From: Jimgerdemannia flammicorona
Lineage: Eukaryota
Direction of reading: 5' to 3'
Assembly: GCA_003990765.1 (NCBI GenBank)
Contig: RBNJ01000130.1
Location: 1-39,925 of the forward strand
Length of the DNA: 39,925 nt
Under the pieces are notes generated by a model, which was not told the DNA's origin, did no database searches, and saw nothing but the letters and a program-made list of their open reading frames with translations. Positions within the stretch are counted from its first letter, which is position 1. The number at the start of each line of letters is the position of its first letter. This document shows, in pieces, positions 8,371-39,925 of this stretch. The translations under genes and the position numbers were made by a program.

Positions 8371-8629
8371 GCCATTGTGCAGAAGACTCGCACGTCGTAA
8401 AATACAAGGATTTAGAAGGCTTCTCAAATTGGTATTTCTGCGAATGGTATTCATAATTTCAATTTATGTTCTTCAAACGATTATTTTGGTTGAAGACCTT
8501 CAAATTCTTCGTTTGTCGCCACGTTTCCTTGTGCTACAAACATTCGCATAATTTCCAGTATATTTTAGCGTGACCCGAAAGAAAAGATTCCTTGTCGGAA
8601 AAACCCCCTATTCATTAATACCTTCTATC

Positions 8630-16700: not shown

Positions 16701-18535
16701 TCTTATACTGTATAGCTGATAGTGTTGCAATCTGGATCTTACTCATGATCTTGTCTGTCTTAATCATAATATTGGCTCTATCTTAAAGTAGGGTGACTTA
16801 ATTCTTATACCAATCAATGTCTGGATTTTATTTCATAAGCCAGGGTTTTCCTAAGATTAGATCATGATCTCCTAATAATATAATCTCAAAGTCTACTCAT
16901 TTCCAATATTTCTGAATCTTGATAGACAGTTTTGTGGCAATTGACTTAATGGGGTGCAGAGTACCATCTGCAGTAACTATACTATTATTCTTGAGTACAG
17001 GCTTGGTAAGGATCTTGAGGTTTTTGATGAGATTCTAATTCTGATTGATGAAGTTCCCTGCAGCTCTGCTGTCTATGAGTATTTGAACTTCTTTTCCTTT
17101 GACTAGGCCTTTGAAAATGAGCATAGCTTGAGCTTGATTTTCACAAAGATTTGCTGCTTGATTAGTGCTACCAAAATCCTTTTGATCTCATTTGGTTTCA
17201 GAGAGTTCTTGGACTTCTGTAATCTTGAGTTGACTGGCTTTTTCCAGGATCATTTGCATGACTCAGTCTCCTTCTTTAACTGTGTAGTCTTGATCCTTCT
17301 GGTTGACAAGCAAGACTTGAACTTGTTCTTGAAAGTCTGGGTCAATGACACCAATGTCTACATCTAAATGATGTTTGATACTGAGTTCTGATTGCAGTAC
17401 AATTCTAGTATAATGTCCTTCAGAACATTGGACTGCAATTCCAGTAGGCACCAGAGTACAGCCCTTGACTGGAATAGTGATTTGTTTGACTGAGTGTAGA
17501 TCAAGACCAATGACTTCTTCTGTTTAATATTGAGAAACCTGGACCTTTGGATGAAGCTTCTTGACCTTAAGTTGACTAGTAGTGAAATTGACAGGTATGT
17601 TCTTGGACAATATGGTGACTGGTCTTGAGGGTTTGCTAGTCTTCCTAGAATATTTGGTTACAATGTGTCCTGTTTGGTAACAGAAGAAATAAGCTCTAGA
17701 TTTCTTCAGACAGTCCTTTTCTTCAGGGGTGAGCTTGGTATTCTTTTTATTCATAGTGTCTATATCCATTGATACCAGGCCAACTGTCCTTGGTTGATTT
17801 CTGTGATGGTTCTTGAAGTAGTTCTTTTTGTAGTATTCTGATTCAAAGTGGTTGTCAAAGATAATGATATCAAATCTATTGGTAATTCTCATGGCTTCAT
17901 CAAGAGTTTTGGACTCTTTTAGCTTAATCTTGACTTATGTATTTCTCTTCAGACCTTGGATATAGCAGTCTATCTTTTCATCCTCAGATACTGCTGGTAG
18001 TTTAAGTAGGATTGACAAGAATTGTGCATTATAGCTTTGTATAGACTTAAGTTACTTGACATTTGCTAGCTTGTCCCTGGCTAGCTTTGTGGCATTAGTA
18101 GGCTTGAACTGCTTGTGAAGAACTCTCTTGAAAGCTTCCTAATCTCTAATTTATGCATATGAGTGTACAGATATAACCATGATATAATTATGCCACCAGA
18201 TAGCTACATTTCCTCAGAGAAGTGTGGTGGCAAATTGGACTTACATATCATCTTCCATTCTTGTGAGCTCGAAGTATTTGGAAGGTCCATGTATCTGTAG
18301 ATAGTCCTCCTTGATGGCTATCAAAGATATCTGGCTTGAGTGGCTTGAAACTGACTATTACTACAGCAGGATGTAATGTTCTTATAGTTTGTGTTTTCTG
18401 ATATTCTAGTTGTGCTTTGAGTTCTTGAATTTGGTGGGCCATGGCATTGATCATATCTTCTATATTAAGCTGCAATTCTCCTACTTCTTCTATAGTAGAG
18501 GGGTCTGGCTGGTAGACTGTCTCTTTGTAGCTCAT
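13780..18535 (-). pseudogene. gag-pol relic of element B
   Basis: Knuckle relic YFFCYQTGHIVTKY; PR ILIDSRAAGNFI; RT LLVYLDDILIFS; RNase H TTDVSNFAI...HEKKLLAIIYAL; integrase EHHNSSLASHLG...YYWPNM; chromodomain YEAEKILDK...YLVK*MGY...*EPLVNL (13780-13922). Many transition-derived stops. Confidence 0.95.
17200..17570 (-). pseudogene. dUTPase domain of element B (between gag and protease)
   Basis: LKVKKLHP...GLDL...VPTGIAVQ...GVIDPDFQEQVQVLLVN...VKEGD, matching trimeric dUTPase motifs 1-4. Confidence 0.9.
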
Positions 18536-18625
18536 TTCGAATTTATGTGACTAGTTGTAATTGGTTTCCAAATTCATGTGAGATTTCTTAATAAGACAAG
18601 ATATAATGACACTACTGCTACCAAG

Positions 18626-19090
18626 TGTAATAGTTCTAGTTTCTTTAAGAGAAAGCAGCTAAATCTGGAAGTTCTGATTGGCCTAAAGTAGCTCAAAGAG
18701 ATACTTAAAGGTTCAAGTATTCTTGAAGGATTTCTGAGAGAAAATATTCTGAGCTTTATTCAGGCAGAGAACAAGAATATTTATATATAATCTGAAAGAA
18801 AGATCCAGAAGGATCTTGGAAAGAAAGAGAAATGCCAAAAAATAGATTCTCAGCAAAGCTGACAAATACTATTCTACAATGTTCCAAAAGATTCTATAAC
18901 TAGCTGAGACAAGATACTTGGTACTAAGGAAAGACAAGAATGTTCTAGTGGTGTCTGGGCACCAAGAGAAGGTTTCTAAGCAAGTAGAAGATACTGGAAC
19001 ATAGTAGAATATTTAAGAAATAATAAGAAAAGACTGACTAAAAGATACAAAAAATATACTAAGACTAAATATAACTGTGAAATTTTTACA
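18626..19090 (-). repeat. 5' LTR of element B
   Basis: Direct repeat of 12983-13447, adjacent to the PBS. Confidence 0.95.
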
Positions 19091-19887: not shown

Positions 19888-21762
19888 TATAAGTATATAA
19901 TCTTCAAGTCATCAAAATTACACATTACCCTCAGAACAAATTCAGAAATCACATATAAGATTACAAAGCTGAGTCAAACTGAAGTTACAGATCATGAAGC
20001 TAAGTCAACTTAAAGTCATAAAATATAAGATATATAGAAATAGAATCTTACTAATTAGAACTAAAAGTATATATGCTGAATATATAATATATTAAAACAA
20101 AGAACTATAACAAACTAAAATCACAATCATAACTCTCAAATATATACTCAGATATGACTACTGAAGTCTATAACTATATCTATGCTAATATTTAGAATAC
20201 TTTTATCAACTGAGCCAAAGTACCTCTACTTTTTATAAATATCCATAGTCTAGTACCTCTCTATTTTATAGAAGTATAATAGAATGCCCATGCCCTAAAT
20301 ATGCTTAGTAAGGCTTACTGAATTAGACAAATCTCAAGCTACTACTAGATCAGCCATCTCTTGAAAGATATAGTTAACCACTATCATGATATAGATATTA
20401 CTAAAATATTACAATACTAGAAACTTATTATTTATAAATACTGAGAACTTTTCTATAAGTATAGCATCTTTATCTTCTGTCTCCAAGTTACTATTACTGA
20501 AATAGTTACTATTCTGACCTATAGCCAAATCAACAATATGGTACAAAAACTTGACTACAAATATATTGAGTATACCCAAACTACCAACAGACCCTTTCTA
20601 TACTCAGATAACTATATTCTGCAAATATCTTAAGTGGGAAATATCATAAAGGATATTTATAATATAATCCAGTTTGATAATAATGAAGCAAAAGACAATA
20701 ATCTCTCTGATACAGATATGACCTCTAGCTAAGAATCTCTGCCAACTCTAATTATTTTGCCAATCTTATTAATGAACTTATAATAGTTCATAACTGACTA
20801 TAAGACTTATTAGAATAATAACTACTAGTATAAATACTAATCTGTATTTATATCTAACTACTTCAACTATAAAAAAGAAATAGAAGAATATAATCTATAT
20901 CTCCAGACAACTCTTAAGATAGAATCAATGACCCTACTTTCTGAATATGAGTGATATGAAGAACAACTATCAGTCTACTATAACTCTACAATATATAATA
21001 CCATAATCTACTAAGGTATACAGATAGTGAATCTGATGAAAGTGAAGATGAAACACCTCTTCTCTATTCATTAATACTATATCTAGTATATACATATATA
21101 AAACTAATGAGGCTATTCTATAAAATGACAACTTTGTTCCAATATACTACTATATGAATAAATAGAGAGATATAATCCAAAAACTGCTCTTCTAGATAAC
21201 TACTTCATTAGAGATAATGTCATCAATAGTAATCTCATTGAAGAGTATCTAGATAGTTTTCTATTAGTATAAATATCCTCTCCCCCAGACCTCAGAAATT
21301 TAGACAAGAATACTGATAAGAATCAGATAAATACTTTCTCATATAAATATCTCTTCCACACTACTCTTAGTATTAACTAATAGTAATATCATAAATAGTA
21401 AATAAACCTATTTAATAATCTACAAACTACTCTTAAATAAATCTACACTATATTAGGTCTCACTTCTAAATAGATCCAGAAATTTCCTAATTGAGTATTG
21501 TTTATAATAATATATCAATTTAACTAAGCTGGTCTTAGTTTCTTAAACTCTCTGAAATAAGAAAATTCTGAATATCTAGAACAAGTCTGAAAAGGACTTT
21601 GGTTGAGATATCAACTCGATCTTAAAATCAATAAGTATAGAGGATATACTCTATATAAAATTGATCTTGATCTTAAGAAAATAGTCTTTTAAAATATCCA
21701 GAACTTCCAGAAATACTCTCTCAGAACTATATAACAGTACTCTAATAAAGTACTTTCTTATA
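19888..21762 (+). repeat. 5' LTR of element C (1875 bp), containing a relic of the U3 ORF from 20154
   Basis: Colinear with 32624-34662. Termini TATAAG...CTTATA are transition-mutated TGTAAG...CTTACA. Confidence 0.9.
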
Positions 21763-23099
21763 ACTTAATAGTAGTAGTTTATAATTCAATTCTACTTCAA
21801 GATACTTCCTCATCTAGCTATAACTCTCTGTAGAAATTTCTATAAGTTAGTATAAAGGCCAACTACTGAACTGGAATTTATTCTGAACTATTTGACAATT
21901 AGAAGTAAATTAAACCTGATATATAAGAATAATTAGATCTCTATATTTGCAACAAGTAGAATAAGCTTCATATATAAAGAAGTACTCTAATTAAATTAGC
22001 ATATAGATAAAACTCTATATACCAAACTTCTTATTCTATATCCCACAAGTCAAGATAAAGAAGGTCTTATAGAAGCCTTCTTTACTCTTCTCAATAAGAG
22101 TTATATAAGCTCTACAAATTTAAGTAATCTAGGACAACTAGCAGTTATCTTTCTAGCCTTAGTTCTTTATAAAGCCCAAGACTCTATAGCCAAGTAGCTT
22201 ATCTCTACTGACTCTCACTATACTAGGACCAAGACTGCTCTATACTACTATTTCCAAAATTGCAAGACCTGCTATATTCTTAAAGAAGAAGTCAGAAAAA
22301 CCCTTTATCAACAATCAGACCCTGAGTCAAAAGCAGGCTCAGTTAGAACCTTACCTAAATCTGAAACTGAACTGAAACCTAATCTCAAAGAAGCTTTTGA
22401 TATAAGCCTATCTAAAATCCAATATATATTAGATACTATTTACTTTAATACTAAATAAACCCAGCTATATAAAGATCAAAATAAAAAAGAGGAGGAGTAT
22501 CTTACTAAATTCAATCTCAGATATACTATTAAAAAAGACACATATATCTATCTTAGGACAAAATATATCTATAAAACAACAGATAGTTATCTATCAGACC
22601 CTTATATCAGATTCATAATAGTTATACTAATAACTTATATAAATCCAGAGAATACTATCACACTCTACACTAGTATCTCAAGTCATATCAGTAACCTCAT
22701 TATTAGTAGTTCAGCTATCTCTTATAAATAATATAGTAAACTAATAAATTCTAAACCTCATAGCTCAGATAGCTATTATAGTAGCTACTATTACTATCTT
22801 AGCTAAACAGACCTGGCTAACTAAAAGCCTGAGTCTACCTATCTTTAATAGTATTATATAAGAAGTCCAAAACTTCATTAGTATAATAGATATCAATTTT
22901 GAAGCTAATTAATAGACCAATGAGTGAGTTATTGACTATCTTCTGATAAATAACTAAGACTATACTATCAAATAACTCTTTACTACTACTATAGCTTATG
23001 TTTACTAAGTTGTTATATTCTTTCAGAGACCTGCTAAAGAATAGTGTCAAACTCTTCCAGAAAAACTTCTTATATAGAATATCTGCCCTATAGTCATTG

Positions 23100-26000
23100 C
23101 TCAAAATGCAGCCAATAATACCTCTAGATAGAGACTACCCTGTAGCTCCTAGACTCAAACAACTCAATATTATAGTGAAATCCTGATTGCTGAAACCTAA
23201 GTAAAACTCTACAACCTCAAATTTGATATATGTATATAGTAAGGAGGAATTTGAAACCTTCTATACAAAACTCAAGTCACTCCTGAACACTATTGGCCTA
23301 GAATATATTATTAATAATAAATTATGAAATAATATAAGAGTAGACTATTTATTCAATATACTACCAGAATAGTTCACAAAAAAGATCTGAGAACAAAGAT
23401 ATTCTATTAGTTATAATTATCAACAATTATGTCTGGCTAGAATCAAAACTATTGTCAAGTAAATTCTAACAGCTGGATCAATTTTATCTCAAAAACAATT
23501 TCATAATAAGAAAAAATTATGAACTAAGAAAGAAGAACTCAAGCATGAATCATCTAGAGCTTCAGCTACATCTACTTCTTAGATATCTTGAAATTCTGAA
23601 TCTATCCAGCCAAGTATCTTTAAAAAACTCACTAAAGGAGAAAGAAATAAACTCAAAAGAAGTAGAGTATATTTCTATTATCAAAAGATAGGAAATATAA
23701 ATAGTGTCTGTCCAAATTGGAAGCTCTAAATAACAATATAAGCAACTGTTACTACTCTGTACCACCTCAACAATCTGACTACTAGACACTAGACTTTATT
23801 AAGTTAAGAACAATAGCTATAGTCTCAATCAAAGAAAGTCAAAAAAACAGCTAAATATAATCTATATATAGCTAAAGAAACTATTGTTTTCAATCAAGTT
23901 AAGTAAGTCTATATAGGAATTAGCATTCAAATTCTCAAAGAACATATTGGAAGGATATACTATTATAGCAGCCTAGTATTAAAAGGACTCTCAGTAGAAG
24001 GAGGAGTCATAGATAAAGACTATATAGGCAAAATCATTATTCTCATCAGAAACTATAGTTAGATATCATTTAAGATCTCTATCGATATTATATTATTTAG
24101 ATACTATTTGAGAAAATTGAATCAACTCTGGCAGTCAAGGAAGTTCCCAAACTATCTGAGGATCCAAAGGGTTTGACTTATCAAATAAAGCCCTAGAACA
24201 ACTTACTATAAATAAGGAGGAATAATTCTATAGAAAAATAGAAGACAGATTCATATCTAGTGGCCAATATCCTCATGGTATTGAAATATATTTTTTCCAA
24301 ATAATAGATGATTACTTCTCTTGTATCAATGAGTTAGTCTAATAAAGAGCTAATAGAAAGAAACCTCTGATAACTGAAATCATTACTATTGGATCAGACA
24401 AACTACTTACTCTATAAGTTTTTATTAATTGAGCCTCTGTTAAGATTATAATAGACAGTAGTGCCTCAGGTAATTTTATCAATAAAGAAATAGCCAATAG
24501 ACTTAAAGTCCTGATCTCTTTAGTATAATAAACTCAAATAGTTGCTATAGCTGATAAAATCTCTTATATAATTAGTAAGGAAGTCTACAACCTATCCTTC
24601 AGAATTGGTAACTATTGAGTATATATTATCCTCTAAATAGTACTACTTCTAGATAATGAGATTATCTATGGGATACTATGGTTAAAATAAGAAAACCCCA
24701 TAATAGATTGAATGAATCATTCTCTGACTATTAAGAAAGGATACCATAATTTTAAACAGTAAGATAAAAGGGACCCACTCAGCTTTAGCAACCTAGGCTC
24801 AAAGATAATTTATATTAATAAACTATAACTCAAGAAATTAGTAAAGAAATGCTCTCTCTTTGCTATCTCTATATATCTATCTAAAGAAGAACTTAAGAAT
24901 CTCAAAGAAAACTTTTTCAAAGTTGACATTTATATCAGACTTCTACTCTAGAAATTTTGAGACATATTCCTAAAAAAACTTCCAAAAATACTATTACCCA
25001 AACAAGTAGTTGACCATGTGATCAAAATCATTTTAGATATCAAATCAGTCTTTAAGTCAATCTATTATATATCTCTTAGAGAAATTGATATACTTAAGAA
25101 AAAAAATTGATGAACTTCTAGAATAAGAATTTATTAGACCTAGTATATTACTATATAGTATACTAGTTCTCTTTGTTGTTAAGAAAGGAGAAGATCTATA
25201 AATATATATTGATTACTGAGACCTTAATAAATAGACCATTAAGAACTATTGCCCACTATTCTAAATTAATGAAATATTCAATAGGCTTATTAATCTACCA
25301 TTTATAAGCTCTTTTGATCTATAAAATAGCTATTGACAAATTGCCATAAAAGAAGAAGATATCTACAAAACTACTTTCTGAACTTGCTATAGACATTTTG
25401 AGTTTCTAGTTATATTCTTTGGTTTAACTAATATTCCTGCAACCTTCCAGGCTCTGATGAATACTATCCTATATCTATACTTAGATAAATTTGTTATCTA
25501 TATTAATAATATTTTGGTCTTCAGCAAAACTTTGGAGAAATATCTCAAATATCTTGAACTAGTACTACTGAAACTCTGAGAAAACTAACTCTTTATAAAA
25601 CTCAGCAAATGTGAATTCTTTCTAAAGGAAATTTAATTTTTTTGTATATATTATTACTCTCAATAGAATCAAGATAGACTCTAGCAAAATCTTTATAATT
25701 AAGAAATAGCTCAGACTCAAGAATCTGAAGACCTTCAGTCATTCCTAAGATTAGTAAACTATTATAAGTAATTCATTATGAACTTTACTAAGATCATTAC
25801 TACTCTTATCCAACTGATCAAGTATAGTAAAAAAAAAAGGACAACTCTGGACTACAAAGTAAGAGAAAGACTTTAACAATCTTGCTAAATGGGGACCTAA
25901 ATAAGATATAGCCTTTTAAGCTCAGAAAGATATCCTGATAACTACTTCAGTACTTCAAGTAGTAAATTTTGTCCTACTATATAAAGTTATTATCAATACC

Positions 26001-27835
26001 TCTGATCTAGCCATTAGAGCAATACTTATACAAGAAGAACACTTTGTGGCCTATTATTTTTACAAGTTTAATGATGCTAAAAGAAACTATATCATCTATA
26101 AGAAGGAAATGTTAGCCATCATAGACACTCTGATTATAGTATTTATATCTTGAAGAAGTATACTTTACCATATTAATAGACTATAAATTATTGATCAACA
26201 TCAAGACCCAGACTACTCTTTTCTAAAAGTAAGCCAGATGAATAAAAGTTCTTGTCAATTCTAACTATAAAATCCAATATGGCCCTAATAAGAAAAATAT
26301 TATTACTGATATAATCTCTAGATGACTATTCAAAGAAATCATACAGATCCTCACTCTGGTTATCAATTCTATTATAGAATAAATTATCATAGTATATACT
26401 AATGATAAAGAAGCTCAAGTACTTTAATTCTGAATAGTAATAATATCAACAAGTATCCCCAGTATCATCAATACTAATTGAAGGACAATACTATCTATTA
26501 TAAGAATAGATTATATATTTCTAACAATTGAGACCTCTGAAGGGCTATCCTATTTGAATATTATAATACTCCTATAGTTAGATATCTAGAATTTGACAAA
26601 TACTATGATATTATTTTCCAAAACTTCTATTAGCCCTATATGGCAGACTAGTTAAAGATCTAATCACTTCTCATAATACCTGCTAATACAATAAGTTCTC
26701 AACTCTAGCAAAATCTGGACTACTCTACTCTATTTCAGTACTATCTGCTAATTAGAAACAAATCTCTATAGACTTCATTGTATAACTACTCTGGACTAAG
26801 AACAGAAGATACAATTATTATCTTTATAGACTATCTTAGCAAAGAAACTCACTTCATACTTACTACTATATCTGCAATAGTACCTAAAATTGCTATACTC
26901 TTATTTGATAACATTTTCTTCTATCATAGTCTTCCTAAGATCATTGTTAGTAACTAAGATCCAATATTTAATAGTTACTTTTAGAAAGCTCTATACTCAT
27001 ATCTTAGAATGAAACTATAATATCTATAGTCTTTCACCTAAAAACTAATAGCCAAACTGAAAGGATGAATAGAACTCAAAAATAAATACTAAGAAACTAT
27101 GTTTTCTATTAATAGAATAATTGGTATAAATATCTTACTACAGTTGAGTTATCTATAATAATAGCAAATAAGCTTTTTTTAAAATATTTCTATTTTTTAC
27201 CAATATAGAGCAAACTCCAAACATTCTCCTAACTCTTATCAGAACTATAGCTGAACTCTCTACTATTGAAACCATTGAGGAATTCTTACTCTAAATATAC
27301 AACCTGAGCAAAATTATAATTGAGAACCTATTTTGAGCTCAAAATCGACATTCTTAGTATATTATTCAATATTATTGAAAAGAAACTTTTGATATTAATG
27401 AAAAGATTCTACTGAATATTCAAGGATACCAAGTTGATAATCTCAAGTACAGACCCTCTATAAAGCCAAACAGTAAGTTCATTGGATCATTTGAAGTCAT
27501 TATGTAAGATTCTCTAATATCTTACAAACTAGTCCTACTAGACACTATCAAGATTCACCTAGTCTTCAATATATAATATCTTAAGAGATATAATAATAAA
27601 AATAATGATGAACTATTTCCAAATTAAACTATAAAATCACTAGTACCTGTCATTATTAATAATTAAGAAGAATATGAAGTTGAGATAAATCTCAATAAAT
27701 ATAGCCATAAGAACTACTCTGAATATCTAGTCAAATGGAAAGGTTATCTAATTTATAATACTATATGGGAACTCAGAACAAATCTCCAGAATATCACCAA
27801 CTTGGTTCAGAAATATGACTCTTTAAACAACTAGT
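23100..27835 (+). pseudogene. gag-dUTPase-PR-RT-RH-IN-chromodomain relic of element C
   Basis: Knuckle relic VYFYYQKIGNINSVCP (~23670-23715); PR IIIDSSASGNFI (~24445); RT YINNILVFS (from YIDD, 25501); chromodomain EEYEVE...EYLVKWKGY...IWE (27667-27830). The gag start is uncertain. Confidence 0.9.
23800..24185 (+). pseudogene. dUTPase domain of element C (between gag and protease)
   Basis: GISIQI...GRI...SSLVLKGLSVEGGVIDKDYIGKIIILIRN plus a motif-5 relic (tgaggatccaaagggttt, from RGSKGF). Confidence 0.88.
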
Positions 27836-28291
27836 CAAACTACTCTGATATCTACTACTACTATACTATATATATTATACTTATAAATACTGTTAAAAGT
27901 ACTCTTATAATTATTATGAGCAAAATTGAAGACTCTACTATATCTTAGCAAAATAAGACAAAAGAAATACTATCTTTCTAGAAAAATAGCAAAATGAAAG
28001 TCAGTCTATTCTCCCTATATCATTGATGAGAAATAAGATATAGATATTTAAGAAGATTCCTTAAAGGAAATTCTCTAGCAGTAAAAATCATTAGAATCAC
28101 TTCCAGTACATAGTATCAAATATATGACCCTTTAATATATGAATTTAATACATTAGACAACTATACTATAAGTATATCACTTTTTGAGAAAAAAGAATAT
28201 TACTAGGCTTTTGACTATCCAAAGGATATAATAACACTAGACCAAATTAGATGACCTTAATGAGGATATCAAAAACTAAAAAGGAGAGAGT

Positions 28292-29167
28292 TATAAGTAT
28301 ATAACCTCTAAGCTACTAAAATTATATATTGCTCTTAGAACAAATCTACAAATTATATAAGATCATAAAACTGAGTTAAATCAAAGTTACAGATTATGAA
28401 GCTGAGTTAACTCAAAGTTACAGAATATAAGATATATTGAAATAAAATCTTACTAATCAGAACTGAAAGTATATATACTGAATATATAATATGTTAAAAT
28501 AAAAAACCACAATAAACCAAAATTACAACTACAACTCTCAAACATATATCTAGATATGACCACTGAAGTCTATAACTATATCTGTGCTAATATTTGAAAT
28601 ATCATTATCAACTGAGTCACAGTATTTTTATCTTTTGTAAATATCCATAGTCTAGCACTTCTCTATTTTATGGAAGTATAATAGAATACTCTGAATATAC
28701 TTAGTAAGACTTACTAAATCTGATAAATATCAAGCTACTATCAGATTAGCTATCTTCTGGAAGATATGATTAACCACTACTATGATATAGATATTACTAA
28801 AATATTATAACACCAGAAATATATTATCTGCAAATACTAAGAACTCTTCTATGAGTATAGCATCTTTATCTCTCACCTCTGAGTTACTACTACTGAAATG
28901 ATTGCTATTCTAATCTATGGCCAAATTGATGATATAGTATAAGAACTCAATTACAAATATATCAAGTATATCTAAACTTCTTGTACCCAAATGACTATAT
29001 TCTACAAATATGTTAAGTAGGATATACTATGAAGAATATCTATAATATAATTCAGTTTGATAATAATGAAGCAAAAGATAACAATTACTCTGATACAGAC
29101 ATAACCTCCAGCCAAGAATCTCTACCAACCCTGATCACTCTGCCAATTTTATCAATAAACTTCATAA
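28292..29167 (+). repeat. Truncated 3' LTR of element C
   Basis: Matches 19888 onward and 32624 onward up to the equivalent of ~33500, then similarity stops abruptly. Confidence 0.88.
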
Positions 29168-29823
29168 CTATCTATAAGTGTATATTTTATTTGTAATAGA
29201 AAAAAGATCTCATAATACAAGTTGTAATTAGTTATAAAAATTAAATCATGAGTATTCATATTGATTTCAGATATATCAAAGCTAGACAAAGCCACTTTTC
29301 TTAATTAGTTATCTATCTATCAAAGTGATTTATAACTTGATAAGCTGAGAGTCAGAATACTATTTCTTTAATAATATATATTTAGTATATTTAATACTAT
29401 TTAAAATAATCATATCAAAAATAAAAAGTATTTTAGTTTCAGTATTTCTGAAAGTACTAAGTATTCTCTTATTCTATCTATTCAATATTTATATATATAC
29501 TATAAGATACTCTTTATAAGCCTGTGGACTATTGTACAGAAGACTGTTTATTATAAAAAAAAAAAGTATTTAGTTCTCTCAATTAGGTATTTTGGTTAAT
29601 GTTGTACATATTTTCAATTTTATTTTCTTCAAATAATTATTTTGATTGAGAGCCATTAGGTGATTTTTTTGTTTATTTATTATTATAGATTTCTTTTAGT
29701 CCAAAAAGCCATTACATTCCACCTTGATCCAAAAGAACAAATTTCTTATTAGAAAAAGTTCTAGTATTAATATCTTATATTATAATTAATAATAAACAAA
29801 GGAGAATTGTAAATATTATTTAT

Positions 29824-30289
29824 TATAATGTAGCAGATGCTTACTCTTAAAAGTATGTTGGATTTCTGTATCTTGAAAACTTGATCTTCTCTGACTCCTC
29901 AGAGTCCTTTGAGTTGCAGGGGAGGGTGGATGAGTTCGAAGTGTATCTGCCTGCAGTCTTACTAGTTCCTTTGCTATCTCTTTGCTTTGAACTATTTTGA
30001 TCTGAGGTTTATTCACTCAAAGATACTGGGTTATTTATACAAGTTTGCTAGCTATGAGATAGTTACTAGGTTACATGGCTAGGTTATGAGTTATTTAACA
30101 CTTTGCTAAATATTTCACCAGTTGCGAAATGCTATACTATATCAAGAAGCTCAATCTCACACTTTGCAAAATATTTAGCAAATGGTGGAATTGAGGACTG
30201 CTAACTATGTGGCTATACTACTTTGGGACTGGGTGCGATCAAGTATCTATTCCCTATTTCCTTCATTCAAATCTGGCTATATCATCACA
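29824..30289 (-). repeat. 3' LTR of element D
   Basis: Direct repeat of 38095-38560, adjacent to the PPT. Confidence 0.95.
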
Positions 30290-30326
30290 ACTTCCTCCTA
30301 AATAGATGATCTCATCTCTGAAGCAT

Positions 30327-30788
30327 CTATTCAAACTCCCAAGCTTCAATGGTCTGTATGGTCTTGTATTGTGCGATTTGTTGCATTACTGTTTCCCAAT
30401 GGTGTCACCTGACTCGGTCGAAGTCTGAGGGAGTCACTCCTCACAGGTGGGCTAGTGCTGATTCATCCTCTCAGAATAGCTTGTGGATTCTCTTAGCAAT
30501 AATGATCTGGGAATAGGAGAGCTGGCATTCTGCAATCCAATTCTCTTTAGTCATTTCTGGGTCTTGGTTGAGTACTTGGCCAAGTTTGAAGTACTCTTGG
30601 AATTTATTTCGATGCTGATAGGTCTTGAAGTGTGAGATCTGAGAGAGATGAGTCTGTATGATGCTTTGGATACTGTCATAAGACTCCTCTATGGTTGGAG
30701 GCTTGGTGGTGCACCATTGTCTCTTGATGGCTCTTTGGGCAGTGCTGGTGATCTTGAGTGCCATTGCAGTACTTTTGTTACTGGCCAT
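30327..30788 (-). pseudogene. 153-codon accessory ORF of unknown function downstream of integrase (element D)
   Basis: The ATG overlaps the pol end (CATGGCCAGTAA). The frame continues past three TGA codons to ...IEAWEFE*. Same length and frame as 39260-39721. Confidence 0.8.
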
Positions 30789-32623
30789 GATATTTCTTGA
30801 GTCAGTTTCGGTAAATAGTAGTGGGGATTATTATGTCTGAGGGTTTTCGTAGCCAAAAGGTGGTCCCTTTTATATCTTGCACAAAATAAGGTCCTTCCCA
30901 CTTGGGCTCCAGTTTTCGTGACCATGAAGCTTTAACTATATTCTGATACACCAGAACTTTGTCTCCTATCTTGATAATCTCCAAGGGTTTATGGGTCTTT
31001 TCTGCATTCCTCCATTGTAGTATCTGCACCTTGATTATGTAATCCTCAGCCTTCTTCCTGATTTGGTGTAGTCTCCATATTTCCATGTCCATGCATTTAC
31101 ATATAGCATCTCCATTGGATGATAGGGTTCCCTGAGAACATTCTTCTCTGAACAGCATTTCTCGAGGGGTAAAGTGGGTACTTTGTGATTGGATATCCCG
31201 GAGAGCAGATAATGCTATTGGCAGATAGTGCTCCCAGTTCTCATAGTTATCACAGATCTTGGCAATAATATTTTTGAGGGTTTTGTTGGTCCTTTCTACT
31301 TGTCCATTTCCTTGAGAGTGATATGCTGTAGTCCAAATATGCTAGATCTTATACTTCTTGTAGAGAACTTCAAAGAACTGGTTTACGAATTCTGTTCCTC
31401 TATCTGTAGTTACTTGTGTGGGGGTCTTGAACCAGCAGATGATTTCCTTGTGGAAGAAATTGGTGATTGACTGTGCATTGGCTTCCATAAGGGGTCCTGC
31501 TTCTATCCATTTTATAAAAAGGTCTATAATGACAATGATGTATTGGTTGCCAGTCAAAGTCAAGGGTAGAGGGCTGATTATATCCATTGCAATGTGGGTG
31601 AATGGTACTAGTTCTATGTATGCTGATCCTGGGGCTTGATTTCATTGGTCTTGTTTCTGTTTCTGGCATTTGTTATAGATATTAATGAATTGTCTGATAT
31701 CTTCCTCCATCCCTGGCCACCATATTGTTCTTCTTGCCTTGTCATATGTGTTCATTCCTCCTAGATGGCCAAGTTCATGTACTAATTTCATTGCTTGCTC
31801 CTTCTTATGTTCTGGTATGACTAGTAGTTTTCCTTTCTTCAGTGTTTCTCCATCAGTTTCGAATTGTTTCCATATTCTGTTAATAATTGTTTGTGTCCAT
31901 TCTTCCAGATGTTGGAGCATCTTTCGCTATCCCAGGTATGTGATAATTCCATAGTAGAGCTCCTTATTCATGATGATTTTGTGGGGGTGGGGTCCTTCGG
32001 GGTGTCCGTGAGAGGGCATTGGCATTGGTATTGGTTCTTCCAGAGTGGTGTATAATGGTTACATCATAAGCTTGTAACTTCATTATTCATCTGGCATAGA
32101 TTCCTTTGGGTTGTCTAGTTGTCAGTAGCTAGGTGAGAGCTGAGTGGTCTATTTGGATGGTGAAGTGTCTTCCAGCCAAGTAGTAGTGGAACTTTTCTAC
32201 AGCCCAGATGACTGTGAGGCATTCCAACTTATAGGATTCATATTCTTTTTCAGCTCCTCGGGTTCTGCAGCTGAGGTATGTGATGATATACTCCACTTTA
32301 TCTTTCTTTTGAGCTAGGACTGCTCCTAGTTCTTGTGCACTTGCATCAGTCTGTAGGATGAATTCTTGAGTCCAGTCAGGTCTTCTGAGGATAAGTGCCT
32401 GGGTCAGTCTGACCTTGAGTTCATCAAATGCTTTTTGTTGTCTGCCAGTCCACTGGAACTTGGTATCCTTCTTATTAAGTTTATTGATTGGTCCTGTAAT
32501 ATTGGAGAATCCTCTAATAAATCTGCGATAGTAGGAGGTAAGTCCTATAAAGGCTTGAGCTTCTATAACAGTGGTGGGCCTTGGGTATACTGCTACCACT
32601 TGTATCTTGAGGGGGTCTGTGTG

Positions 32624-34662
32624 TGTAAGTGCACAACCTCCAAGCCACCGAAATTACATGTGACCTCCAAACAAATCTGGAAATCACCTGCTCGATCACG
32701 AAGCTGAGTCAAACCAAAGTCACAGTGCACAAAGCTGAGTCAATACGAAGTCACAGAACACAAGATCTACACAAACGGAATCTTACCAATCAGGACCAAA
32801 TGCATATATACTGAGCACTGAGACATGTCAAAACAGAGAACCAAAACAACATCAACTATAAACTTCCAAACACACAAACATGACCACTGAGATCTACAAC
32901 TGTATCCGTGCTGACATTTGGAATGCCATTGTCAACCGAGCCACACCCCCTCTGCCCCTCATGAATATCCATAGCCTGGCACCCCTCTACTTCGTGGAAG
33001 CCCGATGGAACACCCTGAACATGCTTAGCGAGGCCCACTGAATCAGACAAATCTCAAGCTACTATCAGATCGGCCGCCTCTTAGAAGATATGGTCGAACA
33101 CCACTATGATACAGACATTACCCAGATGTCTCAACACCAGAAGCTCATCACCCGCAAACATCGAGAACTCTTCTATGAGTATAACACCTTTATTCTCCGC
33201 CTCCGAGTCACTACCAGCGAAATGGTTGCTACCCTGTCCTATGGCCAAATCGATAACATAATACAAGAACTCAACCACAAGTACCTCAAATATGTCCAGA
33301 CCACAGACAGAAGCTTCCCGCACCCTGATGACCATATCCTGCAAATGCCTCAAGTCGGATATGCCATGAAGGACATCTATGATATAATCCACTTTGATGA
33401 AGATGAAGCGGAAGACAATAATCCCTCTGATGCCGACATGACCTCTAGCCAAGGATCTCTGCCAACCCTGATCACTCCGCCAACCTTGCCAATGAACTTA
33501 CAACAGTTCATAACAGCATATGAGACTTATTGGGACAATGACCACTAGCATGAATACCAACCCGCATTCACCCCCGACTACTTCAACTACAATGAAGAGA
33601 CCAGAGAATACAACCTGTACCTCCAGACAACCCTCAAGATTGAACCAACCACTCTACTACCTGAGTATGAGCGACATGAACCACAGCCGCCAGCTTACTA
33701 CAATCCTGCAACTCATAGTGCTGTAACCTATAGAAGGTATGCAGACAGTGAATCCAATGAAAGCAAAAACAATACACCCCTCCTTCGCCCACCAACACCT
33801 TATCCAGTGTACGAGACAGACGATGCTATTCTGTGGGACAGAGATGAAGTTCCAATGTATTATTATCTCAGCAAACAAGGAGAAGTAATCCACGAACCAC
33901 TATTCCTAAACGATTACTTCATCAGAGATGATGCAATCGATGGTGATGTCATTGAGGACTACCCAGATAGTACCTAAATCTATAAATAGCCTAGCAGTTA
34001 TAATATAGTTAGATTAGCATTGTACGACGTGACTGTGAACTGACTCAGCAGTCAGATGATCTCTTGACATGTCAGATCACACTTGTACTATGTGACTGCA
34101 TTCCAACTCAGCAAGGCACTTAGTGCTACATCTATATTTAGCATAGTCCAGATAGCTCCTCACTAGTATAAATACCCCCTCCCTCAGACCTCAGAATCTC
34201 AGACTTGAACAGACTCAAAACACAAGAATATTCCTGAATACTTCCCCACAATATCCCTTCACACAACTACTCCTAGTATAGCAATATCATGAATAGTGAA
34301 TAAACCTATTTAATAACCCACAAATCACTCTTAAGTAAATCTGCTCCCTGTTAGGTCCTACTCCTAACTCCATCACGAAATTTCCTAATTGGGTATTGTC
34401 TGCAGCGATACGCCAATTCAACTAAGCTGGTCTTAGTTTCTTGAACTTCCTGAAATATGGAAAATCCTGAACATTCAGAACTAGTCCGAAAAAGGACTTT
34501 GGTTGAGACGTCAACCCGATCTTGAAATCAATAAGTATAGAGGACATACTCCATACGAAATTGATCTTGACTATAAGAAAATGGTCTTCCAGAATATCCA
34601 GAACTTCCAGAAAACCCTTTCAGAACTACGTAATGGTTACCCTAAAAAGCAACCCTCTTACA
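32624..34662 (+). mobile_element. Solo LTR of family C (2039 bp), lightly mutated
   Basis: TGTAAG...CTTACA termini and a perfect 5-bp TSD gtgtg (32619-32623, 34663-34667). Removing it restores D pol (LGHIIN*DGTHT-DPLKIQVV). TATAAATA at ~34168, AATAAA at ~34299. Confidence 0.95.
32880..33977 (+). pseudogene. LTR(U3)-encoded ~365-aa protein of unknown function, with two premature stops
   Basis: Single frame from ATG 32880 to TAA 33977, broken only by TGA 33039 and TAG 33546, each one C>T from a sense codon. Includes track ORF 33090..33548. Relics are present in both LTRs of element C. Confidence 0.85.
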
Positions 34663-35514
34663 GTGTGTGTTCCATCTCAATTGATAATATGGCCAAGATA
34701 GGAGATCTTGATTTCTGCAAACTTGCACTTTTTGGGTTTGATGTAAAGGTCATGTTGTCTTAGTCTCTCCATTATCTGCTGTATGTGCTACAGATGTTCC
34801 TCAGGTGTCTTGCTGTAGATAATTATATCATCGACATAGACCATCATCCATCTTCCTATATCATAGTGAAAGATTTTGTTCATCATTCGCTGGAAACTTA
34901 CTGGTGCATTGCATATTCCAAATGGTATTCGTAGGTAGACATAGGTTCTATCTGGAGTGATGAAAGCTGACTTTTCACTTGCTATATCTGTGAGTCCGAT
35001 TTGGTAGAATCCTGAGTATAAGTCCAAAGTGCTGTAGTACTGTACTTCATCTCCTAGTATTATGAGGATATCATTGATGAGGGGCAGTGGTTGGCAATCC
35101 TTCTTGGTAACCACATTGAGCTTTCTGTAGTCAACACAGAGTCTTGGGGCGAATTCTCCAGGCTTACTACCTTTTTTCAGGGCTAGTATAACAGGTGAGG
35201 ACCAGGGGCTGCTGGCTTCTTTAATAATGCCAGCTTCTTCCATCTGCTTGATTTCTTCTCTAAGCCATTCTTGGTAGACTGGTGGGACAGATCTTGTCTT
35301 CTGATAAATTGGTTCGGTGTCTCCAGTATCTACTTTATGATAGTAGTGTGGGGTCTTTCCTTTGATGTCCTTGAAATCTGTGGCAAGGACATCTTCGAAT
35401 TTGTGGAGTATTTTCTTGAGTTCTTTCTTAAGTGGAAATTTATTTCCAATGGTGTAGCTGTGCTTACTTGTGTTTTCCTCCTTTTTATGCTTGAGTTCGG
35501 TGATCTTGGTGCTA

Positions 35515-35950
35515 GTGAATACTCCTCTTCCTGTGGATCCAAATTCTTTCTTTCCTCTTTTCGTTTCCTCCAGCTTCTTAACTTCTATGATCTTTGGTTG
35601 TAGGATCGAAAATATCAACATTTGCGCTAATCAGTCCTTCTTCTTGACTGGAAATGGAATTGTAGGATTGTGATTCCTAGCAATGAGTAGAATTTCTCCA
35701 GTATAGTCTGAATCAATAACTCCTCCTTCAATTGTGATTTTGCTTCTAGCCAGGCTGCTTCTTGTCTTGAGAATCCCAACATAATCCTTTGGGATGGTCA
35801 TCTCCAGTCCAGTTACAAGTAGGGTAGTTGTCTGGGGTTTCAGTACAGTCTCTTCTACTGTAGTGATGTCCATTCCGGCTGCATTTTCTGACTTGTATTC
35901 TGGCAAGACTGCATCAGGGTAAATCTTTCGAATCTTGATCTTGATTTCTT
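35515..35950 (-). pseudogene. dUTPase domain of element D (between protease and RT)
   Basis: AAGMDI...TGLEMTIPKDYVGILKTRSSLA...EGGVIDSDYTGEILLI...RGKKEFGSTG (motifs 1-5). Confidence 0.95.
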
Positions 35951-38094
35951 CTTCATCATCACTGTCCTCCAGGAGGGCTGGTAGTTCATCATCTTCCTTC
36001 TTCTCTTCTTCCCTGATCTGTTTTTCGAGAGCTTTCTGCCTTCTTTCCTGGTGGATCTTCTTGATTCTGATGGTGCACTGGTAGCAATCATTGACATGCT
36101 CCATACAGTACATCTTGATCCCATGAGGACAGACTCTTTGTGGGGCATAATCTTCTGTGATCTTCTTGTACCATTCTTCTTTACTTATCTATCCAACTTT
36201 CTTCTTCTTTGGAGTAGTCACCATATAAGCTTCCTCTTGCTCACTCTCTTCTTCCTCCATGTTGGGCAGGACTCCTTTGTTGATATTGATGAGAATTCGT
36301 ATCTTCTGTCCCCAGTAGGTGATCTGCATCTTCTGGGCATTGAGATCAATTACTGCCTTGGCTTTGTGAAGCCATTGATTGCCAATGAGAATGTCATAGT
36401 TGGTGGCATTGGTTACAATTACATCTACTGGGATGGTTGCTCCTCCAATCTTGATGGGAATATCTCGGATCTTTCCCAGAGGTGTGGCTCTTGTACCATT
36501 GGCTGTGATGAACACCAGCTTAGTTGCTTCTTCCACATCCCAACCTAGGTGGTCTGCTGCCTTCTTGCTGAGGAGACATCCTCCTGCTCCTGTATCAATA
36601 ATGGCTTCAAAGATTCTATCTTCGATTTGGCATATTGCATAAGCAGAGGTTTTGTAATTATCCTCACTTTCTTCTCCTGAGTCCTCTTGAATGTTATTGG
36701 CCTCAGTTATCTTCCATCCTTGTTTCTTAGTTATTTTGGCAAGTCCAAACCTCATTTGCTGTCTAAATGTTGGGATTTCTGTGAGCTGACCAAAGGTTGC
36801 ATTGACCTTTTGTTGACTGAGGTCCTTGAAGATATCATACTTGAAGGTCTTGGTCTTGCAAAGCTTCTTTTCTTTTTCTCCTTCACTGGCTGGAGTGGTT
36901 CCTTGGATAATATCTTGAACTACTTGTTCCAGCTCTATATCTTGGTCTGTCTCTTCAGCTTGGCTTTCAGTGGCTATTTCTATCTGCTTTTCTACTGAGT
37001 TCTTCTTGGGTCTTCCTGATGATCTCTTGTAGAGTTCTTTGCAAACATTCTTCTTGGTAGTCTGAGCAGGATAGGCCTCCCATTCTTCTTTATCAGAATC
37101 TCCAATTTTCTCGAAGGTAATTATATTAGCCTGCTCCTTGTTTTATATAGCATTACTTGGTTGAGCCTTATACTTGGTTTCGCTCATGCATTCATAGGAG
37201 TAGTGGCCTTCTTCTCTGCAAGTATAGCAGGTGCCTTTCCTCTTGTCTAAGATGGCAGCAAACTTCTGGACAGGGTGGCAGTCTCTTCCTTGAATTTCCT
37301 TTATCACATCTCCCAGGTGAGCAGTCATTTCGGTGAACCTTTTGGCAAGTTTCTCTATTGGATTGCTGTTCTTTTGCTACTCCATAGCTTTTGGCTGAGG
37401 TGTGTTTTGATTGATCATTATGGGTATCTTGATTCTGACTCCTGTGACCCTTTTCATTGTGTAGTCTTATGGATGTCTGGCTATCCAGTATCACTGAGCA
37501 TAGGTAACCTTCTGTAGCAGATCCAGAATCACTGGTGATGAGCGGATGGCCATAGCTATTTCTGGATAGACTCCTTTCATGAAGGTTGCTTTGGCTACTT
37601 GATCTCGGATAGCAGCAGCATAATCTGCAAGGATTATCTGATATCAAATTCTGATATAGAATGTGTTTGGACCCTCGCTTATTCCTTGGTATGTTGTGTT
37701 GAGCTGATCCTTCAGGACTTGCTTGATCTCATCTGTATAATATGTATTTCAGAGCCAGGTCTTCTGTGCTGTCAGTATAGTATCGGCATCATTTTCTGCA
37801 TAGGTTGTGGCTGTGAATGCTGCTCTGGCAGGACCTCGTAGGCTGAAGAGCATGAGGGCTACTTGCTGTGCTGCTGTCAGGGTCCTTATAGTAGCATACT
37901 GCTCAAAATTGTCAATGAAGGTGATGATTGATTTGTCTGAGGTATACATATCTGTGGAATACTGGTGGTCTCATATCCATCTTGTCTGGGTATTGGGGCT
38001 CAGTTTGTATGGTTGTTCAGGTAGGGGTGGTTGTTTGTTGTTTAGCTTGAAAGTGAGGAATTCATCTTGAATCACCAGCCAATGGGCACTAAGT

Positions 38095-38560
38095 TGTAAC
38101 ATAGCGAATGCTTACTCTTGAAAGTACATCGGATTTCTGTATCTTGAAAACTTGATCTTCTTTGACTCCTCAGAGTCCTTTGAGTTGCAGGGGAGGGTGG
38201 ATGAGTTCGAAGTATATCTGCCCACAGGCTTACTAGTTCCTTTGCTATCTCTTTACTTTGAACTATTTCGATCTGAGGTTTATTCACTTGAAGATACTGG
38301 GTTATTTATATAAGTTTGCTAGCTATGAGATAGTTACTGGGTTACATGGCTAGGTTATGAGTCATTTAACACTTTGCTAAATATTTCACCAGTTGCGAAA
38401 TGCTATACTATATCAAGAAGCTCAATCTCGCACTTTGCGAAATATTTAGCAAATGGCAGAATCGAGGACTGCTAACTATGTGGCTATACTACTTTGAGAC
38501 TAGGTGCAATCAAGTGTCTATTCCCTATTTCCTTCATCCAAATCTGGCTATACCATCATA
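38095..38560 (-). repeat. 5' LTR of element D
   Basis: Direct repeat of 29824-30289. Minus-strand TATAAATA at ~38303-38310 and AATAAA at ~38279-38284. Confidence 0.95.
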
Positions 38561-38745: not shown

Positions 38746-39925
38746 TGTAACATAGCAGATGCTTACTCTTGAAAGTACGTCGGATTTCTGTATCTTGAAA
38801 ACTTGACTGTTCTGACTCTCACAGAGTCTCTGGAAGTGGCAGGGGAGGGTGGGTGAGTTTGAAGTGTATCTGCCCGCAGGCTTACTAGTTTCTTTGCTAT
38901 CTCTTTGCTTTGAACTATTTCAATCTGAGGTTTATTCACTCAAAGATACTGGGTTATTTATACAAGTTTGCTAGCTATGAGAGGGTGGCTAAGTAATAAA
39001 TGAGTCATTTGGACTTTGTCGAAACATTTGGACAATGTTTAAACGCTATACTAAATCGGGGTATCCGATTTGGATAATGTCTAAAATTTAGATGATGTCT
39101 AAGAAATTTAGACAATGTCGAAATCGAGGACTGCTAACTATAATGCTATAGTACTTTGGGAATGGGTGCGATCAAGTGTCTATTCCCTATTTCCTTCTTC
39201 CAAATCTGGCTGTACTGTCACAACTTCCTCCTGAATAGATGGTCTCGTCCCTGAGGCATCTATTCAAACTCCCAGGCTTCAATGGTCTGTATGGTCTTAT
39301 ACTGTGCGATTTGCTGCATGACTGTTTCCCAATAATGTCTTCTCACTTTCTCGAAGTCAGTAGGGGTTACTCCTCTCAGGTGGTCTATCACTGCTTCATC
39401 TTCTCAGAATAACTTGTGGATCCTTTTGGCAATAGTGATCTGTGAGTGGGATAGTTGACACTCGGCAATCCAGTCCTCTTTGGTCTTTGCTGGATCCTGA
39501 TTGAGCACCTGTCCAAGCTTGAAGTACTCTTGGAATTCTGCGCGATACTGATAGGCTCTAAAGTGCGAGATCCGAGAGAGATGAGTCTGCATAATACTCT
39601 GAATATCCTCATAGAATGGCTCTATGGTCGGAGGCTCGGTGGTGTGCCATTGTCTTTCGATGGCTCTTTGGGCAGCACTAGTGATCTTGAGTACCATCGC
39701 AGTACTTTTGTTACTGGCCATGGTATTTCTTGAGTCAGTTTCAGTGAATGGTGGTGGAGATTATTGTGCCTGAGGGTTTTCATAGCCAAAAGGTGGTTCC
39801 TTTTATATCTTGCACAAGGTAAGGTCCTTCCCACTTGGGCTCCAGTTTTCGTGACCATGAAGCTTCTACCATGTTCCGATACACCAGGACTTTGTCTCCT
39901 ATCTTGATAATCTCCAAGGGCTTGT
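38746..39925 (-). mobile_element. 3' end of Gypsy element E (sister subfamily of D); LTR at 38746-39222; runs off the window
   Basis: 477-bp TG...CA LTR similar to the D LTR except for a U3 block, PPT at 39223-39233, accessory ORF, and integrase C-terminus (KLEPKWEGPY). Confidence 0.93.
39260..39721 (-). pseudogene. 153-codon accessory ORF of element E (one internal TGA)
   Basis: MASNKSTAM...YFKLGQVL...AKRIHKLF*EDEAVIDHLRGVTPTDFEKVRRHYWETVMQQIAQYKTIQTIEAWEFE*. Many synonymous differences from the D copy. Confidence 0.85.

Follow-up and report, generated by a model that had tools for sequence, protein, structure and literature searches.

A probable protein-coding gene within the long terminal repeat of a Ty3/gypsy chromovirus from Jimgerdemannia flammicorona

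Can the long terminal repeat (LTR) of a fungal retrotransposon carry a protein gene of its own? The question is raised by a contig of Jimgerdemannia flammicorona (RBNJ01000130.1, NCBI GenBank assembly GCA_003990765.1), of which positions 1 to 39,925 of the forward strand were analysed (39,925 nucleotides, hereafter the window). A solo LTR in this window contains a sense-oriented frame of 365 codons, and relics of the same frame are found in both LTRs of a longer Ty3/gypsy element, here called element C. An earlier reading made from the letters of this DNA (the sequence-only reading) had proposed that the frame is a gene of the element itself. Judging from the pattern of conservation, we consider it very probable that a protein-coding gene lies inside the LTR. 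The explanation we favour, to which we give slightly better than an even chance, is that a Ty3/gypsy chromovirus carries here an accessory protein gene specific to its lineage, lying wholly in the U3 region and most likely expressed from a short transcript of its own; a nuclear regulatory activity is a further proposal that we make with low confidence.

The solo LTR and its reading frame

The LTR identity of the segment at 32624-34662 is supported by the presence of three copies in the window, a target-site duplication, a polypurine tract preceding the 3' copy and the retroelement domains of an internal region. The solo copy is 2039 bp long and has the termini TGTAAG...CTTACA; the pentamer GTGTG stands on both sides of it, bearing out the earlier description of a solo LTR flanked by a target-site duplication. 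It was inserted at the junction between the reverse transcriptase (RT) and ribonuclease H (RNase H) regions of a minus-strand Ty3/gypsy pol gene, as the open reading frames (ORFs) on either side match RVT_1 (34788-35630, E = 1.2e-19) and RT_RNaseH_2 (32129-32653, E = 2.8e-32) in Pfam. The RT and RNase H frames coincide on removal of 2044 nt, corresponding to the LTR plus one copy of the duplication, and not on removal of 2039 nt. The interrupted pol has in-frame stops of its own near the junction.

Within the LTR, 256 nt precede the frame (P0001) and 685 nt follow it. A stop at 32859 means that it cannot be extended upstream, so its first ATG is at 32880. Over its 365 codons it is interrupted by only two stops, a TGA and a TAG, and both are of transition type: CGA>TGA when compared with an Arg in one database relative (P0003), and TGG>TAG, a C>T change on the other strand, when compared with a Trp in a second (P0002). 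The other frames across 32880-33977 contain 14 and 34 stops on the plus strand and 7, 25 and 24 on the minus strand. When the segment was shuffled 2000 times with dinucleotides preserved, the best plus-strand frame contained 17.2 stops on average and never fewer than 8, with 0/2000 shuffles reaching two or fewer. The earlier claim of a long frame with only two C>T-type stops thus stands, and the three peptides then quoted are all present in the translation. G+C content by codon position is coding-like (0.53/0.34/0.52).

Element C shows to which kind of retrotransposon this LTR belongs. Its internal region was searched with Pfam using frames read with X at stops, and domain coordinates, converted from the residue ranges of those frames, place a dUTPase at ~23832-24077 (E = 3.3e-10), RVT_1 at ~25268-25639 (7e-13) and RT_RNaseH_2 at ~25890-26132 (1.9e-11), together with an integrase SH3 domain (SH3_Tf2-1, 7.6e-5) and a weak Asp_protease match (0.007). 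Downstream of the SH3 domain lies a chromodomain (PF00385 Chromo, ~27703-27819, E = 8.5e-6), which at 26.0 bits barely passes the cut-off of 25.1 in this copy, heavily altered by mutation resembling repeat-induced point mutation (RIP). The integrase core (rve) went undetected by Pfam in the mutated sequence. These domains, in the order protease (PR)-RT-RNase H-integrase (IN), agree with the label of chromovirus given previously; all lie on the plus strand like the LTRs, which places the LTR frame in sense orientation. A purine tract, AAAAGGAGAGAG, occupies 28279-28290 and ends one base before the 3' LTR; no recognisable tRNA-complementary primer-binding site was found after 21762, in a stretch that is heavily mutated. 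The G+C content of element C is 25-30%, and the ends of its 5' LTR, TATAAG...CTTATA, are the G>A-changed form of the solo LTR termini. As stated in the sequence-only reading, tblastn locates relics of the frame from 20154 and from 28556; they sit at the corresponding place in both element C LTRs, so that the frame is found in 3/3 LTR copies of the window. The 3' LTR of element C stops near 29187, partway through its ORF relic, and is followed by ~630 bp of AT-rich, LTR-unrelated sequence (29188-29822) and then by the LTR of the next element.

Within the solo LTR the frame precedes both copies of TATAAATA (33981 and 34167) and the AATAAA at 34299, and the position previously assigned to it, upstream of the LTR TATA box and polyadenylation signal, is borne out by the second of these motifs and the AATAAA. 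Ahead of the frame, a 31-bp tandem repeat and a TATATA form a candidate promoter (Table 1), with a single out-of-frame upstream ATG at 32825. Both repeat units contain TGAGTCA, which we take to be an AP-1/Gcn4-type site, and the repeat is retained in both element C LTRs apart from RIP-type changes. Counted across the window, TGASTCA is mildly enriched (13 occurrences against 6.7 ± 2.3 expected; 1/100 shuffles reached 13). An inverted copy of the 31-bp unit lies downstream of the frame, the inverted arms being 74% complementary over 34 nt and 81% over 21 nt. This enhancer-like copy, the end of the ORF and the first TATAAATA all fall in the segment (33957-34142) that the element C 5' LTR lacks. 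The start of the LTR (T-GTAAGT, 32624-32629) also matches the fungal 5' splice site consensus GTAAGT, a resemblance that the inverted terminal repeat probably produces by chance.

Relatives, coding tests and mutation of the copies

Relatives of the frame were sought in a protein set of 5.8 billion clusters, at near and shorter lengths, and by an exhaustive HMMER pass over 1.84 billion representatives. Among the ~15 billion proteins represented, only two relatives were found, both of them partial and open throughout. P0003 is a 'hypothetical protein' of 128 aa from a contig of 1180 nt; it starts at the Met of the frame and is 89% identical to it over 128 residues. P0002 (247 aa, from a contig of 998 nt) aligns from residue 115 onwards at 65% identity, with two in-frame gaps, and because the alignment reaches the last-but-one residue of both proteins, their stops coincide. 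A third candidate, P0004 (1598 aa, E = 4.6e-5, nine stretches), was dismissed as compositional, being a repetitive protein of bacterial type. No paralogue of the frame was found elsewhere in the window by tblastn, a scan of prokaryote genomes gave 3 pattern matches of which none was confirmed, and an Rfam scan of the window returned no match.

Two tests of coding character were applied. For the first, the codons of the window frame were mutated at random until amino-acid identity had fallen to 65.4%, the level of P0002, with kappa set to 1, 2 or 5. The observed proportion of BLOSUM62-positive residues (84.1%) compares with 76-77% in the simulations (standard deviation 1.7%), and was reached in 0/1500 runs at each kappa, or 0/4500 overall. 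Only 0.4%, 0.6% and 1.1% of the runs (kappa 1, 2 and 5, respectively) acquired no new stop. The second test makes use of the fact that RIP produces transitions only, leaving transversions as a record of the ordinary divergence of LTR copies. A comparison of the solo LTR with the element C 5' LTR gives 11/7/29 transversions at codon positions 1/2/3, where composition predicts 15.1/15.6/16.3 (p = 1.4e-4). As this third-position excess is found between LTR copies, it points to purifying selection at a time when the frame was already in the LTR.

These results support the view that the frame is protein-coding and was under purifying selection in the past: it recurs at a fixed position in several copies of the family, with coding-like conservation (3/3 window LTRs, two outside relatives). 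Neutral evolution, which the sequence-only reading had named as a finding that would count against a gene, is contradicted by both the replacement test and the transversion test.

The copies have been altered by a mutational process with a strong bias. Going from the solo LTR to the element C 5' LTR, 170 C>T and 107 G>A changes (277 together) were counted, against 45 reverse transitions and 66 transversions. These RIP-type changes occur in the contexts CpA (134), CpC (57), CpG (45) and CpT (41); context rates are approximate, since the background dinucleotide counts span a slightly longer stretch than the compared columns. A pattern dominated by C>T and G>A with a preference for CpA is that of RIP in ascomycetes; together with the dUTPase/chromodomain type of element, it is the basis for calling the retrotransposon fungal in character. 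The comparison of the solo copy with P0003 (32880-33263) gives a similar picture: 11/14 amino-acid differences are explained by a single C>T or G>A on the window side, while 2 are in the reverse direction and 1 is a transversion. Short and isolated as it is, the GC-rich solo LTR thus appears to have been mildly struck by a RIP-type process itself, and both of its stops are of that type.

Proposed role and competing explanations

What the protein may do is approached through its composition. No Pfam family was found for the window frame at E<=0.1, nor for P0002 or P0003 at E<=1. A profile search of the PDB gave no relative, the only matches being to SKA1 (two chains of one unrelated protein, E = 0.53), and comparison with the gag region of the neighbouring element using hhalign showed no similarity (probability 0.14%). 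The ESM Atlas offered no feature match for P0002, with structure rows at TM<=0.30 and an Atlas model pLDDT (predicted local distance difference test) of 0.39; for P0003 it returned a recognition of 2273, below the guide value, and <=155 shared features, providing no lead. The N-terminal ~140 residues look helical in an AlphaFold2 model built on the three-sequence alignment, which places helices, at low confidence, at residues 3-19, 27-52, 58-76, 85-115 and 121-142, its sole consistent feature. The remainder is probably disordered. The N-terminal part has an isoelectric point (pI) of 6.65, and residues 146-365 one of 4.1. Among the 219 residues of the latter part are 43 D+E vs 11 K+R, together with 21 Tyr and 24 Pro (20% D+E, 10% Tyr, 11% Pro); an acidic, Tyr/Pro-rich C-terminal half had been described earlier, and these figures agree with it. 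Tiles of 39 aa with a net charge <=-7 and >=6 W/F/Y/L (thresholds of our own choice) make up 31/327 in P0001 and 61/209 in P0002, and the last P0002 tiles carry a net charge of -10 or -11 with 11-12 W/F/Y/L. Acidic composition combined with aromatic and hydrophobic residues has been linked to transcriptional activation.

A sense frame inside the U3 of a 2-kb LTR is copied by reverse transcription to both ends of each insertion and is retained in solo LTRs. That the frame is duplicated in this way was part of the original proposal, and its position in the U3 part of three LTR copies supports it. Lying downstream of gag-pol, the frame is untranslatable from genomic RNA and so needs its own messenger. 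This would most likely be a short transcript initiated within U3, driven by the 31-bp tandem repeat and the TATATA at 32805, and ending at the LTR's own AATAAA (34299), in which case each LTR would be a self-contained gene cassette; alternatively, the messenger might be produced by splicing from genomic RNA. We tentatively suggest that the helical N-terminal module binds a partner rather than DNA directly. The acidic tail, rich in Tyr/Phe/Leu/Pro and resembling acidic activation or histone-binding regions, may in turn act in the nucleus, in trans, on the transcription or chromatin of element copies, although our confidence in this step too is low. A regulatory function of the protein in transcription or chromatin is doubtful on present analysis. 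The transactivator or anti-silencing role put forward in the sequence-only reading is a hypothesis that the acidic/aromatic composition alone fits. More speculative still, and in our estimate distinctly unlikely, is the idea of the LTR as a mobile gene cassette that seeds the genome with a trans-acting nuclear factor, whose tail keeps family LTRs transcribed or blunts heterochromatin- or RIP-linked silencing. If this were true, two copies would be added with every insertion and one kept in every solo LTR, the dose of the factor would follow the copy number of the family, and no regulatory protein encoded in U3 would have been known before outside retroviruses. A conserved protein gene in the LTR would in any case make a solo LTR a possible gene as well as a promoter remnant, offer a natural case of gene dose tracking transposon copy number, and give the element a candidate route for acting on its own transcription or on host silencing.

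Several observations weigh against the accessory-gene explanation. The window holds no intact copy: the solo LTR has two stops and both element C LTRs have suffered RIP-like destruction, so the gene is dead here and all three copies are pseudogenes. The element C 5' LTR has both stops of the solo LTR; in the 3' LTR the first of them reads TAA, while the second falls outside the aligned part. At 11 diagnostic sites each element C LTR shares the derived base at 7/11, against background RIP-type rates of 46% and 43%, and inheritance from a broken master and parallel RIP are equally possible sources of the shared stops. If inherited, they would make the gene dispensable in cis for transposition. 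Fixed stops had been named beforehand as a finding that would speak against a gene, and this applies in part: both stops are common to all comparable window copies, so that at least here the gene was either not required in cis or struck in parallel by RIP.

Other reservations concern the evidence itself. The relatives are partial only, and since only open frames enter a protein database, their openness is biased evidence; the replacement and codon-position tests are unaffected by this. Applied to P0003, the first test has no power (observed positives reached in 19% of 1500 runs, with 48% of all runs staying open), nor has the second with the element C 3' LTR (transversions 5/4/10; p = 0.065 uniform, 0.15 composition-corrected). 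Codon usage correlates with that of the neighbouring pol at 0.56 in frame and at 0.49 and 0.65 when shifted, and so does not discriminate between frames. The AlphaFold2 model is unusable as a structure (mean pLDDT 31.5; predicted TM score, pTM, 0.18); of the helical N-terminal domain proposed earlier, helices over residues 3-142 are predicted, but at this low model confidence. The frame contains no DNA-binding domain detectable by Pfam and no basic cluster usable as a nuclear localisation signal, the only basic pairs being RK (92) and RR (285). Finally, the promoter reading draws on short motifs, and the U3/R/U5 borders were placed by the spacing of TATA and AATAAA, which makes the proposed anatomy a presumed one.

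Among the competing explanations, the one that survives best, while still rather improbable, is that the frame is a passenger: a host or foreign orphan gene, or a fragment of one, captured into U3 by template switching during reverse transcription and carried unused, the constraint signal having arisen while it was still a host gene or shortly after capture. Gene capture by LTR elements is well established, as with maize Bs1 and the retroviral oncogenes. No retroelement domain can be recognised in the frame, nor does it resemble gag, and with both stops common to the comparable window copies, transposition may have continued with a broken gene. However, no host paralogue exists among the ~15 billion proteins, in keeping with which the earlier worry about a fragment of a known host gene finds no support in the protein sets searched, and the relatives lie on ~1-kb contigs, as repeats do in assemblies. 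Furthermore, the third-position transversion excess was measured between LTR copies, that is after the frame had entered the LTR, and P0002 is 35% diverged and yet open to the same stop.

The anatomy of the LTR could also be different, with transcription starting at the upstream module (~32830-32870) and the frame forming an ORF0 ahead of gag, within a 5' leader or an R region of great length. The tandem repeat and TATATA stand just upstream of the ATG, as this would require, and plant elements with an ORF0 or ORF1 upstream of gag have been described (Retrosat2; PMC3485330). Against this, the TATAAATA at 34167 is canonical, is conserved in the element C 5' LTR and precedes the AATAAA by 132 nt, a normal U3/R/U5 spacing. 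R would have to be ~1.5 kb, far longer than any R region known to us, and gag would require reinitiation after a 365-codon ORF. We therefore hold this arrangement to be improbable.

Less probable again, and to our minds very unlikely, is that a small mobile element brought the frame into a short ancestral LTR, the inverted repeats at 32703-32736 and 34016-34049 being its terminal inverted repeats. The 34-nt arms, 74% complementary, do bracket the frame, and a length of some hundreds of bp is usual for the LTRs of fungal chromoviruses (crapaud 339-443 bp, PMC10787394; SM-Tcn1 440 bp, PMC2864245). Nevertheless, no target duplication is seen outside the arms, Pfam detects no transposase-like domain, the left arm belongs to a tandem duplication of the kind typical of U3 enhancers, and the right arm lies in the segment that one LTR copy lost by deletion between direct repeats; whatever its origin, the frame now belongs to the LTR in each of the three copies. 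That there is no gene, and that the long frame is a by-product of an A+C-rich, G+T-poor strand (A 32%, C 29%, G 17%, T 22%) whose composition alone lowers stop frequency and whose codon usage fails to single out the frame, is close to refuted by the shuffles, none of which fell below 8 stops, by the 14 and 34 stops of the other two plus frames, by open relatives sharing start and stop, and by the rejection of neutrality in the replacement and codon-position tests.

Coordinates of the features are collected in Table 1.

Table 1 Features of the solo LTR, its reading frame and element C
Feature	Position	Strand	Remarks
Target-site duplication, 5 bp, left copy GTGTG	32619-32623	.	pentamer recurs at 34663-34667
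Solo LTR	32624-34662	+	blastn and alignment to both element C LTRs
31-bp unit in two tandem copies, candidate enhancer for a promoter within U3	32697-32758	+	TGAGTCA in each copy (32705, 32736); putative function
TATATA, candidate TATA box of an ORF-specific transcript	32805-32810	+	75 nt upstream of ATG; putative
LTR reading frame, 365 codons	32880-33977	+	ATG 32880, terminal TAA 33975-33977; pseudogene here (two in-frame stops)
In-frame TGA, codon 54	33039-33041	+	Arg in P0003; TGA in element C 5' LTR, TAA in 3' LTR
In-frame TAG, codon 223	33546-33548	+	Trp in P0002; TAG in element C 5' LTR
Segment of ~185 bp missing from element C 5' LTR	33957-34142	+	bounded by 13-nt direct repeats 33963-33975 and 34148-34160
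Inverted copy of the 31-bp unit	34016-34049	-	TGACTCA at 34041; ~120 nt upstream of second TATAAATA
Second TATAAATA, presumed main LTR promoter	34167-34174	+	presumed U3/R border just downstream; kept in element C 5' LTR
AATAAA, presumed LTR polyadenylation signal (R/U5)	34299-34304	+	putative
Target-site duplication, right copy GTGTG	34663-34667	.	directly 3' of solo LTR
Element C, full extent	19888-29187	+	dUTPase- and chromodomain-bearing
Element C 5' LTR, 1875 bp	19888-21762	+	TATAAG...CTTATA, heavily RIP-like mutated; ORF relic 20154-21257, in pieces (tblastn)
Element C internal region	21763-28291	+	three frames with stops read as X searched with Pfam; tblastn
Element C 3' LTR, truncated after ~900 bp	28292-29187	+	ORF relic 28556-29187 (tblastn)

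The rest of the window is also rich in retroelements. The minus-strand element interrupted by the solo LTR, likewise of chromovirus type, encodes a dUTPase (35631-36188, minus strand, E = 1.6e-17) which, like that of element C, lies between protease and RT; dUTPase has been described in Ty3/gypsy elements of the fungi Phanerochaete, Postia and Tuber (PMC2864245). A second type of LTR is present in three copies (29823-30467, 38094-38558 and 38746-39400; 93% and 62-85% identity), and a fragment at the window end (39738-39923) has 84% protein identity to the integrase-side ORF at 30802-31341. These copies and the end fragment indicate that the element hosting the solo LTR lies in a nest of its own family. 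A third Ty3/gypsy element (12983-18925, minus strand) has 300-bp repeat ends (12983-13282 and 18626-18925) that are 92% identical, and its RT/RNase H shares ~30-33% identity with the one in the other family. As a candidate host gene the window offers just a 318-codon open frame at 8552-9508 (plus strand), the product of which is hydrophobic and looks like a multi-pass membrane protein; Pfam assigns it no family, and a search of the protein set with the ORF at 8630-9505 gave no relative at E<=0.001. At the window start, a segment of ~360 bp with 57% G+C (1-362) is repeated 1.2 kb downstream (1240-1590) with 78-88% identity. The second copy differs almost exclusively by C>T or G>A changes, which makes the two look like another RIP-type pair.

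Comparison with known systems

Our full-text literature search found no published protein gene within a fungal retrotransposon LTR, subscription journals, Repbase and some supplements, among them those on the positions of the Botrytis extra ORFs, being outside its scope; to that extent it agrees with the sequence-only reading, which knew of no such case in fungal chromoviruses. The closest parallels in position come from retroviruses. The sag gene of mouse mammary tumour virus (MMTV) is a complete sense frame in the U3 of an LTR of >1 kb, is duplicated at both ends of the provirus and is expressed from spliced or internal-promoter RNAs. The window frame resembles it in being complete within the presumed U3, in sense orientation, and upstream of the LTR TATA and polyadenylation signal; it differs in having no Pfam family (E<=0.1) and no evident hydrophobic membrane anchor. 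The nef gene of primate lentiviruses and bel/bet of foamy viruses encode accessory, non-structural, fast-evolving proteins at the 3' end, partly in U3. Their frames begin ahead of the LTR and extend into it, whereas the window frame starts inside the LTR. Pfam and PDB searches revealed no sequence similarity to Sag, Nef or Bet. The MMTV gene is called a superantigen gene in the 3' LTR in the title of Choi, Kappler and Marrack 1991 (cited in PMC2119259), and since a chromovirus of the fungal type has no env, such a role would be meaningless for the window frame.

Extra genes of retrotransposons provide the second parallel. Boty-like (BcGypsy1) elements of Botrytis cinerea and Sclerotinia carry brtn, described as an extra gene of unknown function (PMC7264820, PMC8365987, PMC4227169). 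It runs antisense, in the interval separating pol from the 3' LTR (PMC7264820). Like brtn, the window frame is an extra gene in a fungal chromodomain Ty3/gypsy element; unlike brtn, it is in sense orientation and inside the LTR, a distinction made here by description and not by sequence. The legend of one figure of fungal elements also names an unspecified 'add. ORF' (PMC2864245). Additional ORFs (aORFs) are widespread in the LTR retrotransposons of plants. Examples such as ORF0 of Retrosat2/RIRE3/RIRE8, ORF1 of Ogre, and those of Grande and the antisense ORFs of RIRE2 and Retand are presented as family-specific, fast-evolving orphans with no known function that are nonetheless conserved inside each family (PMC3485330, PMC7264820). 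Those described in the same sources are internal, either preceding gag or following pol ahead of the 3' LTR (PMC7264820, PMC3485330), and even in Retrosat2, with LTRs of >3.2 kb, ORF0 is upstream of gag and outside the LTR (PMC3485330). The window frame differs from the described aORFs in lying within the LTR and not in the internal region.

Two further elements bear on what an LTR can hold. For crapaud of Podospora, the available account gives a variable U3 of <200 bp and describes no LTR ORF (PMC10787394). In Cassandra, a terminal-repeat retrotransposon in miniature (TRIM), the LTR includes 5S rRNA gene sequence with its own promoter, making each LTR a transcription unit (10.1101/2023.07.14.548913). 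The window LTR is like that of Cassandra in holding a gene-like unit, whereas Cassandra has a pol III RNA gene fragment in a non-autonomous plant element and the window frame is probably a protein gene. Gene finders and repeat maskers conceal frames of this kind, and as the sole two database relatives are fragments on ~1-kb contigs, similar LTR genes may be under-reported. A conserved protein gene lying wholly in the LTR of a fungal chromovirus would thus unite two things already known separately, the extra genes of retrotransposons and the U3 genes of retroviruses.

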